A stretch of DNA of 64,000 nt. It comes from Escherichia coli (GTDB lineage: Bacteria > Pseudomonadota > Gammaproteobacteria > Enterobacterales > Enterobacteriaceae). Position numbers and translations under genes: made by a program. The DNA is taken from assembly GCF_024223415.1 (NCBI RefSeq), contig NZ_CP100501.1; one strand, given 5' to 3'. The notes below the pieces were generated by a model. The model was not told the origin of the DNA. It saw nothing but the letters and a program-made list of their open reading frames with translations, and made no database searches. Shown here in pieces: positions 63,172-64,000 of the stretch (positions within the stretch are counted from its first letter, which is position 1; every line of letters begins with the position of its first letter).

Positions 63172-64000
63172 ACGCTCCGCGAAAATCGATCCCCGCAGGG
63201 GGGCTTCGATGTTGTTGTGAACGGCGAATACATAAAGCATGTGTCGGAAACAGCGGCTGACCCACGTTCAGCCCGGCCTGCAGTTCTGACAGGCACATGC
63301 ACTGTGCACTCTTGTTAGCCTTGTGGACGGTTTCGAGGCGGGCGAAAACCGACAACCCCTGCAAACAGGATTAATGGCTGGAAAATATATTACATAAGGA
63401 TGTATCTGTGGCAAAAGTGAATATAAGTAGTTGAATAGATCGTTATATTTGATAAATCAGCATATCATGCTGATTTGTGTGCAGTGTCTGGAGGATTAGA
63501 TCGTTTAAAAATTTTAGGCGATCTCTTCTACTAAAAATGATGAAAAATACAGCATAAAAGATCGTTTGTGAAATTGTTCATTTTTTTGACACAGTTCAAA
63601 AAAACGACGCTTTTTAGGGGGTTAAAGAGGGCAACTGTAACCCTGAGAAATCGTGTCGGCTTTTCAAAGCGGTGGAAAAGGGGTATATTGCGGATCGTTA
63701 TTCAGTGGCTTTTGGGATCCTCGCGGTCCGGAAAGCCAGAAAACGGCAGAATGCGCCATAAGGCATTCAGGATGTATGGCAGAAACGACGGCAGTTTGCC
63801 GGGGCCGGAAGGCTGAAAAAAGTTTCAGAAGGCCATAAAGGAAAACCCCCATAATCTTCCTGTCGAACTTGGCGGAACGCACAGAAGATTATGGGGGCCT
63901 TACAGAATACGGGATAAGTATATATGAAACCGTGTCAGAGATTCAACCCTTTGCAGTGCATTAACGCACGGCAATCTGTTCCCGCCATAAGCGACAGCTT

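Follow-up and report, generated by a model that had tools for sequence, protein, structure and literature searches.

Three copies of AGATCGTT and a palindrome lying between the transfer activator gene traB and the replication gene repA of an I-complex plasmid were found to be conserved among related plasmids, and we lean towards reading them as one conserved, Dam-sensitive Lrp array which is situated upstream of the predicted traB promoter and controls traB. The DNA analyzed is a stretch of 64,000 nucleotides (the window) from an IncB/O/K/Z-type I-complex plasmid. Its nearest records are from E. coli and Shigella (PLSDB, 562 records), and the best PLSDB match is an IncK2/Z plasmid of 79 kb with 99.9% identity. 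In all of the closest IncB/O/K/Z records, the minus strand carries traB (NusG family), and the first base of repA directly follows the last base of the window. Judged by this gene arrangement, 63365-64000 is a divergent control region of traB (-) and repA (+, starting just past the window end), and not the plain traB leader of the preliminary description. All the elements mentioned in that description exist, but four of its five coordinate ranges were wrong, three by 10 positions and one by 2.

GATC boxes and a predicted Lrp site upstream of traB

traB (62657-63163, minus strand) encodes a NusG/RfaH-like transfer activator of 168 aa with a TTG start, and matches Pfam NusG above the curated cut-off (E = 1.8e-5). 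Its start is annotated inconsistently in public records, as ATG 63298 (214 aa) or TTG 63163 (168 aa). The short form is favoured because of the NGN domain and the TraB homologue of the type C lineage, which has 171 aa, and it gives a 5' UTR of about 200 nt. Promoters of traB, rep and RNAI were located by consensus scan and are predictions. The predicted traB promoter (63387-63414, minus strand) is sigma-70-like and is composed of a -35 element TTGCCA (63414-63409), a 16-bp spacer and a -10 element TAATAT (63392-63387), with the predicted start near 63380. Its alignment columns are 94% conserved across 48 relatives, and a candidate promoter of IncI1 plasmids, TTCGCA-17-TAGAAT, aligns to the same columns. 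A start near 63380 gives the first GATC box a position of about -58 and the Lrp site one of about -85, and the module as a whole is about 60-180 bp upstream of the predicted promoter. The GATC motifs had been assigned to the promoter or leader of traB. They are near the predicted promoter, but its position at 63414-63387 leaves them upstream of it and outside the transcribed leader. The traB leader shows no ops-like site. An exact RfaH ops consensus, GGCGGTAGnnTG, is present at 43850-43861 (+) and was considered as a site for the RfaH-like TraB; it was rejected as probably a chance match because it is antisense inside the minus-strand ORF 43707-44957.

The copies of AGATCGTT are at 63437-63444, 63498-63505 and 63559-63566, spaced by exactly 61 and 61 bp; the third had been located correctly and the first two 10 positions too low. 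The further GATC reported beside them was found at 63520-63523, and other GATCs beyond the clustered copies are at 63693, again as GATCGTT, and at 63716. The 17-mer TAAAAGATCGTYTAAAT is common to the two GATC sites of pap, which are Lrp sites 2 and 5 (PMC4417163). This pap box was scored across the 64-kb window and hits were counted at 12/17 or better. Five such matches were found, four of them within 140 bp (63433 +, 63494 +, 63512 - and 63555 +); these four are among the five best hits of the window, with one other hit of at least 12 elsewhere. A switch of pap type has at least two GATCs within the conserved pap GATC box, and here four boxes are present in 63433-63571. Box 1, GAATAGATCGTTATATT (63433-63449, +; GATC at 63438), matches the pap box at 12/17 and is 98.8% conserved, and its TAGATCGTT is invariant across 13 relatives and IncI1. 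The match of box 1 rises to 15/17 in type C. Box 2, GATTAGATCGTTTAAAA (63494-63510, +; GATC at 63499; 13/17), is 98.5% conserved and makes an inverted repeat with the inverted box 2', GAAGAGATCGCCTAAAA (63512-63528, -; GATC at 63520; 13/17). Box 3, TAAAAGATCGTTTGTGA (63555-63571, +; GATC at 63560; 13/17), is 99.7% conserved within the IncB/O/K/Z lineage (type A) and is specific to it, no GATC being present at this place in IncI1 or type C; its first 13 bases are contiguous and identical to the pap box.

None of 5000 local dinucleotide shuffles (63365-63640) contained four or more pap-box-like sites. In dinucleotide shuffles of the same segment, the probability of at least four GATCs was 0.004 and that of any 8-mer occurring three times was 0.022. 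Across the window GATC is under-represented (178 against 270 expected), while AGATCGTT occurs six times against 1.72 expected, a count reached in 1 of 100 shuffles. Conservation in relatives, described below, is stronger evidence than these shuffle statistics that the GATC motifs are not due to chance. An oriC-like 13-mer, GATCTCTTCTACT, at 63520 was considered and rejected because it is not conserved in the K1 lineage. In three IncK1/IncFIB STEC-type plasmids (L011, L012 and L013), box 2 (window 63496-63510) is expanded by a tandem heptamer TAGATCG, giving TAGATCGTAGATCGTAGATCGT with one or two extra GATCs at 7-bp spacing. Elsewhere in the window, weaker pap-box-like GATC sites (11-13/17) form a loose group of three at 27321, 27882 and 27987 (27321-28003), partly within the gap between the ORFs 27119-27694 (+) and 27954-28817 (-).

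The palindrome occupies 63454-63476, 10 positions higher than first described, and its arms (63454-63463 and 63467-63476) are 100% complementary. Its core, CAGCATATCATGCTG (63458-63472), agrees at 14 of 15 positions with yAGhAwATTwTdCTr, the Lrp consensus of E. coli, and no other site of the window comes within one mismatch of it. Both this consensus and the alternative AGAATwwwATTCT are given in PMC5554404. The 15-mer, a site predicted by sequence match, sits between boxes 1 and 2; the corresponding feature of the pap switch is the presence of Lrp sites overlapping or flanking the GATCs. The orthologous position matches at 15/15 in 76 of 111 relatives and at 14/15 in another 27. The exact matches mostly read CAGAATATTATTCTG, which fits the second consensus too, and the variation is mostly at the degenerate consensus positions 4, 12 and 15. 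In one metagenome contig with an IncI1-type variant (L048), box 1 and the Lrp site, orthologous to about 63430-63500 of the window, are replaced by three tandem copies of GTTTATTAGAGT; the GATC is lost and the site reads CAGAGTGTTGTTCTG.

Conservation of the module in three plasmid lineages

The motifs were compared across related plasmids in two samples. In 13 plasmids (IncK1, K2/Z and B/O; 85-99% identity), no GATC motif varies, in contrast to the stretch between copies 1 and 2 of AGATCGTT, which is heavily variable. For an unbiased sample, metagenome contigs were scanned with a 28-mer of the rep leader lying outside the module, which retrieved 111 sequences that include 460 bp upstream, 87 of them distinct, in three lineages. 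The distinct sequences comprise 48 of the B/O/K/Z lineage (type A), 25 of IncI1 and 11 of a rarer lineage, type C; in the other three the module is disrupted. In PLSDB, type C is represented by 22 conjugative plasmids of E. coli; traB is directly divergent from rep in this lineage. Among the 48 type A sequences the boxes are 97-100% conserved and the intervening segments 74-88%, so the claim that the GATC motifs are conserved cis-elements was borne out, and the absence of conservation in relatives, which the preliminary description had named as refuting it, does not hold. IncI1 and the third lineage share three of the GATC positions. Relative to the start of the Lrp 15-mer, GATCs are found at -20/21, +41 (box 2) and +62/63 (box 2') in all three lineages, a pattern present in about 104 of the 108 sequences having the module. 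Type A has an extra GATC at +102, and IncI1 and type C have other additions. The GATCs are helically phased in IncI1 (R = 0.86, P = 0.002), in type C (P = 0.019) and in type A (R = 0.98 at a period of 10.2 bp). By hand count, the distance from the Lrp 15-mer to the predicted rep -10, whose GGGTATATT is kept in the three lineages, is 226 bp in each of them.

The IncI1 counterpart was recognised by reading the sequence of an IncI1-type plasmid, L014, and then by alignment; a blastn search of 63300-63700 against IncI1 gave no hits. Its GATCs are at -314, -252 and -230 relative to GGCAGAATGCGCC. In IncB/O/K/Z and type C, traB directly adjoins the module. In IncI1-type plasmids, the DNA beside the GATC/Lrp module resembles the 5' region of traB, as though this were present a second time in degenerate form (L014 1930-2060 compared with L014 870-1000 and with window 63163-63360), which suggests that traA and Hft were inserted, or a segment was duplicated, between the module and traB. 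The sequence GGGGAGCCCGCAGAATTCGGAAAAAATCGTACGCTAAG, which we take to be a Tn3-family-like terminal inverted repeat marking transposon insertions, is present in L016 (about 3285-3325) and L043, upstream of the rep promoter. One insertion, in a pESI-like plasmid, cuts between the module and the rep promoter, and another removes the module in L043.

Divergent promoters and alternative readings of the module

The 14-bp-stem hairpin had been included in the traB leader. It exists, with arms at 63846-63859 and 63884-63897, 2 positions lower than was given, but it belongs to a replication antisense-RNA system. Rfam PK-repZ (RF01087) matches 63838-63988 (+) with 167.3 bits against a gathering score of 44 (E = 5e-39), spanning model positions 1-150 of 150, upstream of repA. 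In the rep mRNA leader (63838-63988, +), stem-loop I (63846-63897) carries TTGGCG in its loop, and the pseudoknot partner CGCC is at 63983-63986. On the minus strand, the RNAI/Inc antisense RNA gene (63838-63946) has its own predicted promoter, TTGAAT-18-TATACT (63946-63917), the hairpin and a U-run terminator; the RNAI hairpin folds at -31.7 kcal/mol (z = -5.9) and is followed by UUUUCCUUU. A CopA-like Rfam match on this strand was sub-threshold. A repB/repY-type leader peptide ORF (63924-64000, +; MKPCQRFNPLQCINARQSVPAISDS...) runs into the repA start past the window end and would be coupled to rep; the role of repB and the I-complex replication-control system are described in PMC10286972. 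These features identify the hairpin as stem-loop I in the leader of the rep mRNA, which is also the RNAI/Inc antisense RNA; it is part of an already known system that is separate from the module. In hairpin, TTGGCG loop, CGCC partner, leader ORF and full-length high-scoring match it is the same as I-complex control, and no difference was found. Its annotation is corrected from traB control to replication control. The predicted rep (RNAII) promoter (63661-63696, +; -35 TTTTCA 63661-66, -10 TATATT 63684-89) is 99.3% conserved, and the GATCGTT at 63693 is at about its +1.

In the mechanism proposed for the module, host Lrp would nucleate on the central consensus site, presumably one of high affinity, and would spread cooperatively onto the flanking GATC boxes only if their GATCs are un- or hemimethylated. 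Dam methylation would block this spreading, and bound Lrp would block Dam in turn. Such mutual exclusion at the boxes would make expression of the RfaH-like activator TraB, and then of the pil and tra operons, dependent on methylation state and Lrp, with a possible switch-on in plasmid copies that are hemimethylated because they have just been replicated or transferred. It is possible, though doubtful, that the module is in addition a heritable Dam/Lrp epigenetic switch which chooses the plasmid-bearing cells that express TraB and gain competence for transfer, and which flips to ON when the DNA is hemimethylated shortly after conjugative entry or replication. If true, the classical repressed state of I-complex plasmids (IncI, B/O, K, Z) and the transient 'high-frequency transfer' of newly infected cells would have a molecular explanation, and the switch might co-ordinate transfer with the divergent replication promoter too.

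Control of traB was committed to as most likely since, by the consensus scan, the module is nearest to the predicted traB promoter, since a 312-kb pESI-like megaplasmid keeps the module with traABC though a transposon end replaces its rep promoter, and since the rep promoter persists in the replicons L043 and L055, which lack the module. Several observations count against the Lrp/Dam reading. On pESI, whose IncI1-type tra system carries the module, pilV mRNA showed no significant change when lrp was deleted (PMC5013300, data not shown). A tblastn search of the 64-kb window, which is less than the whole plasmid, detected no homologue of PapI (best E = 0.16; a host copy is possible), and the pap geometry is not reproduced. 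The traA promoter of the IncI1 plasmid pESBL maps inside Hft and not in the module (PMC5801416), and in IncI1 the module is about 540 bp from traA.

A module that acts at the rep promoter would be just as compatible with the fixed 226 bp between the Lrp site and the rep -10. In that case the rep (RNAII) promoter might be modulated by Lrp together with Dam or SeqA, which would link copy number to the growth state or the replication cycle; alternatively, both divergent promoters might be co-ordinated. This we consider unlikely, although the 226 bp are identical in the three lineages despite about 50% identity between them, the IncI1 module stays beside rep while traA and Hft separate it from traB, a GATCGTT is at the predicted rep +1 in the B/O/K/Z lineage, and in pESBL the copy number went up about 2-fold with Tn insertions nearby. 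Against it, the rep -35 lies 95-250 bp downstream of the module, a greater distance than that to the predicted traB promoter, and the +1 GATC is not conserved in IncI1. L043 and L055, with rep but no module, and the pESI-like plasmids, with the module but no rep promoter, speak against a replication role as they speak for traB, and Hft insertions in pESBL left repZ mRNA unchanged. If Lrp is left out, phased hemimethylated GATCs could bind SeqA after replication and silence the divergent promoters transiently. A SeqA cluster has at least two GATCs on one helical face within about 31 bp, and those at 63499 and 63520 are 21 bp apart; in every lineage 21-22 bp separate the GATCs of box 2 and box 2', the GATCs as a whole share roughly one helical face, and the cluster is dense though GATC is under-represented in the plasmid overall. 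SeqA needs only GATC, however, so the conserved flanks TAGATCGTT and TAAAAGATCG would be left unexplained, as would the GATC-free 15-mer that is an exact Lrp consensus in most relatives, and sequestration by itself appears improbable.

The extension of the conserved motif past GATC would also suit operators for another sequence-specific protein, either plasmid-encoded (TraC or other) or a host factor, with the GATC core being incidental; TraC has no recognisable domain, which leaves a DNA-binding role possible for it. To such operators we attach a low probability, because the lineages share only GATCG(T) and A/T-rich flanks, which fits recognition of Dam/Lrp type better than a specific operator, and the remaining copies of AGATCGTT in the window are at chance frequency. 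That the motifs are functionless chance repeats in AT-rich spacer DNA is hardly credible. The repeats are short, and a triplicated 8-mer is not very rare in local shuffles at the 0.022 given above, but position and sequence are conserved in three diverged lineages, about 2000 PLSDB records in total, by which this explanation is effectively refuted.

Comparison with Hft, pap and traJ

I-complex plasmids (IncI1, IncB/O, IncK and IncZ) are important vehicles of ESBL and AmpC resistance genes. Their transfer genes are mostly off and are turned on transiently, and the only mapped cis-region for control of their transfer is Hft in IncI1. No description of Lrp or Dam control of IncI/I-complex plasmids was found in full-text literature searches, and two TnSeq/TraDIS studies of I-complex plasmids make no mention of GATC, Dam methylation or Lrp. 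A conserved Lrp/Dam-type module beside the master activator gene is a concrete and easily testable hypothesis which uses host factors. Hft of IncI1 pESBL/R64 (Yamaichi 2015; Poidevin 2018) shares its intergenic space with the module, the tra regulatory genes being on one side and repY/repZ on the other, and its effects on transfer and copy number have been shown experimentally. It differs in being the 270 bp directly upstream of traA, whereas the IncI1 GATC/Lrp module is about 250 bp further towards rep, and IncB/O/K/Z plasmids are without traA and without Hft. The identity of the module motifs with the IncI1 Hft region was considered and rejected, since Hft abuts traA and is about 250 bp on the traA side of the IncI1 module.

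The pap operon provides the precedent for Lrp plus Dam control in which methylation and binding are mutually exclusive. The module resembles it in having GATCs within the shared box TAAAAGATCGTYTAAAT (12-13/17 in the module boxes and 15/17 in type C), in one box being inverted relative to the others, in the Lrp consensus site, in the phased GATCs and in the position between divergent promoters. In pap, there are two mutually exclusive triplets of Lrp sites with GATCs 102 bp apart, while the module has one central consensus site and GATCs at -20, +41, +62 and +102, with spacings of 61, 21 and 40 bp. The geometry of two three-site sets with GATCs 102 bp apart is thus absent from the module, and no locally encoded PapI-family co-regulator is present within the window. 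pap controls fimbriae, whereas the module, recognised here from its sequence, is beside a transfer activator and/or a replication gene.

On pSLT, the IncF virulence plasmid of Salmonella (called pLST in the review), traJ is known to be repressed by Dam. The proposed module would share with pSLT traJ the use of host Lrp and Dam methylation upstream of a conjugation master activator gene. Camacho and Casadesus (2002/2005) are said to have described an Lrp site at traJ, with hemimethylation after replication as the signal. The two differ in plasmid family, which is unrelated, in regulator (TraJ against RfaH-like TraB) and in transfer system (MPF-I for the module), and the module has several GATC boxes rather than one, with a replication promoter adjacent. 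If confirmed, the module would add to Lrp/Dam GATC-box control, the hairpin part being already known, and methylation-dependent control of conjugation would extend from IncF (traJ) to an unrelated transfer system.
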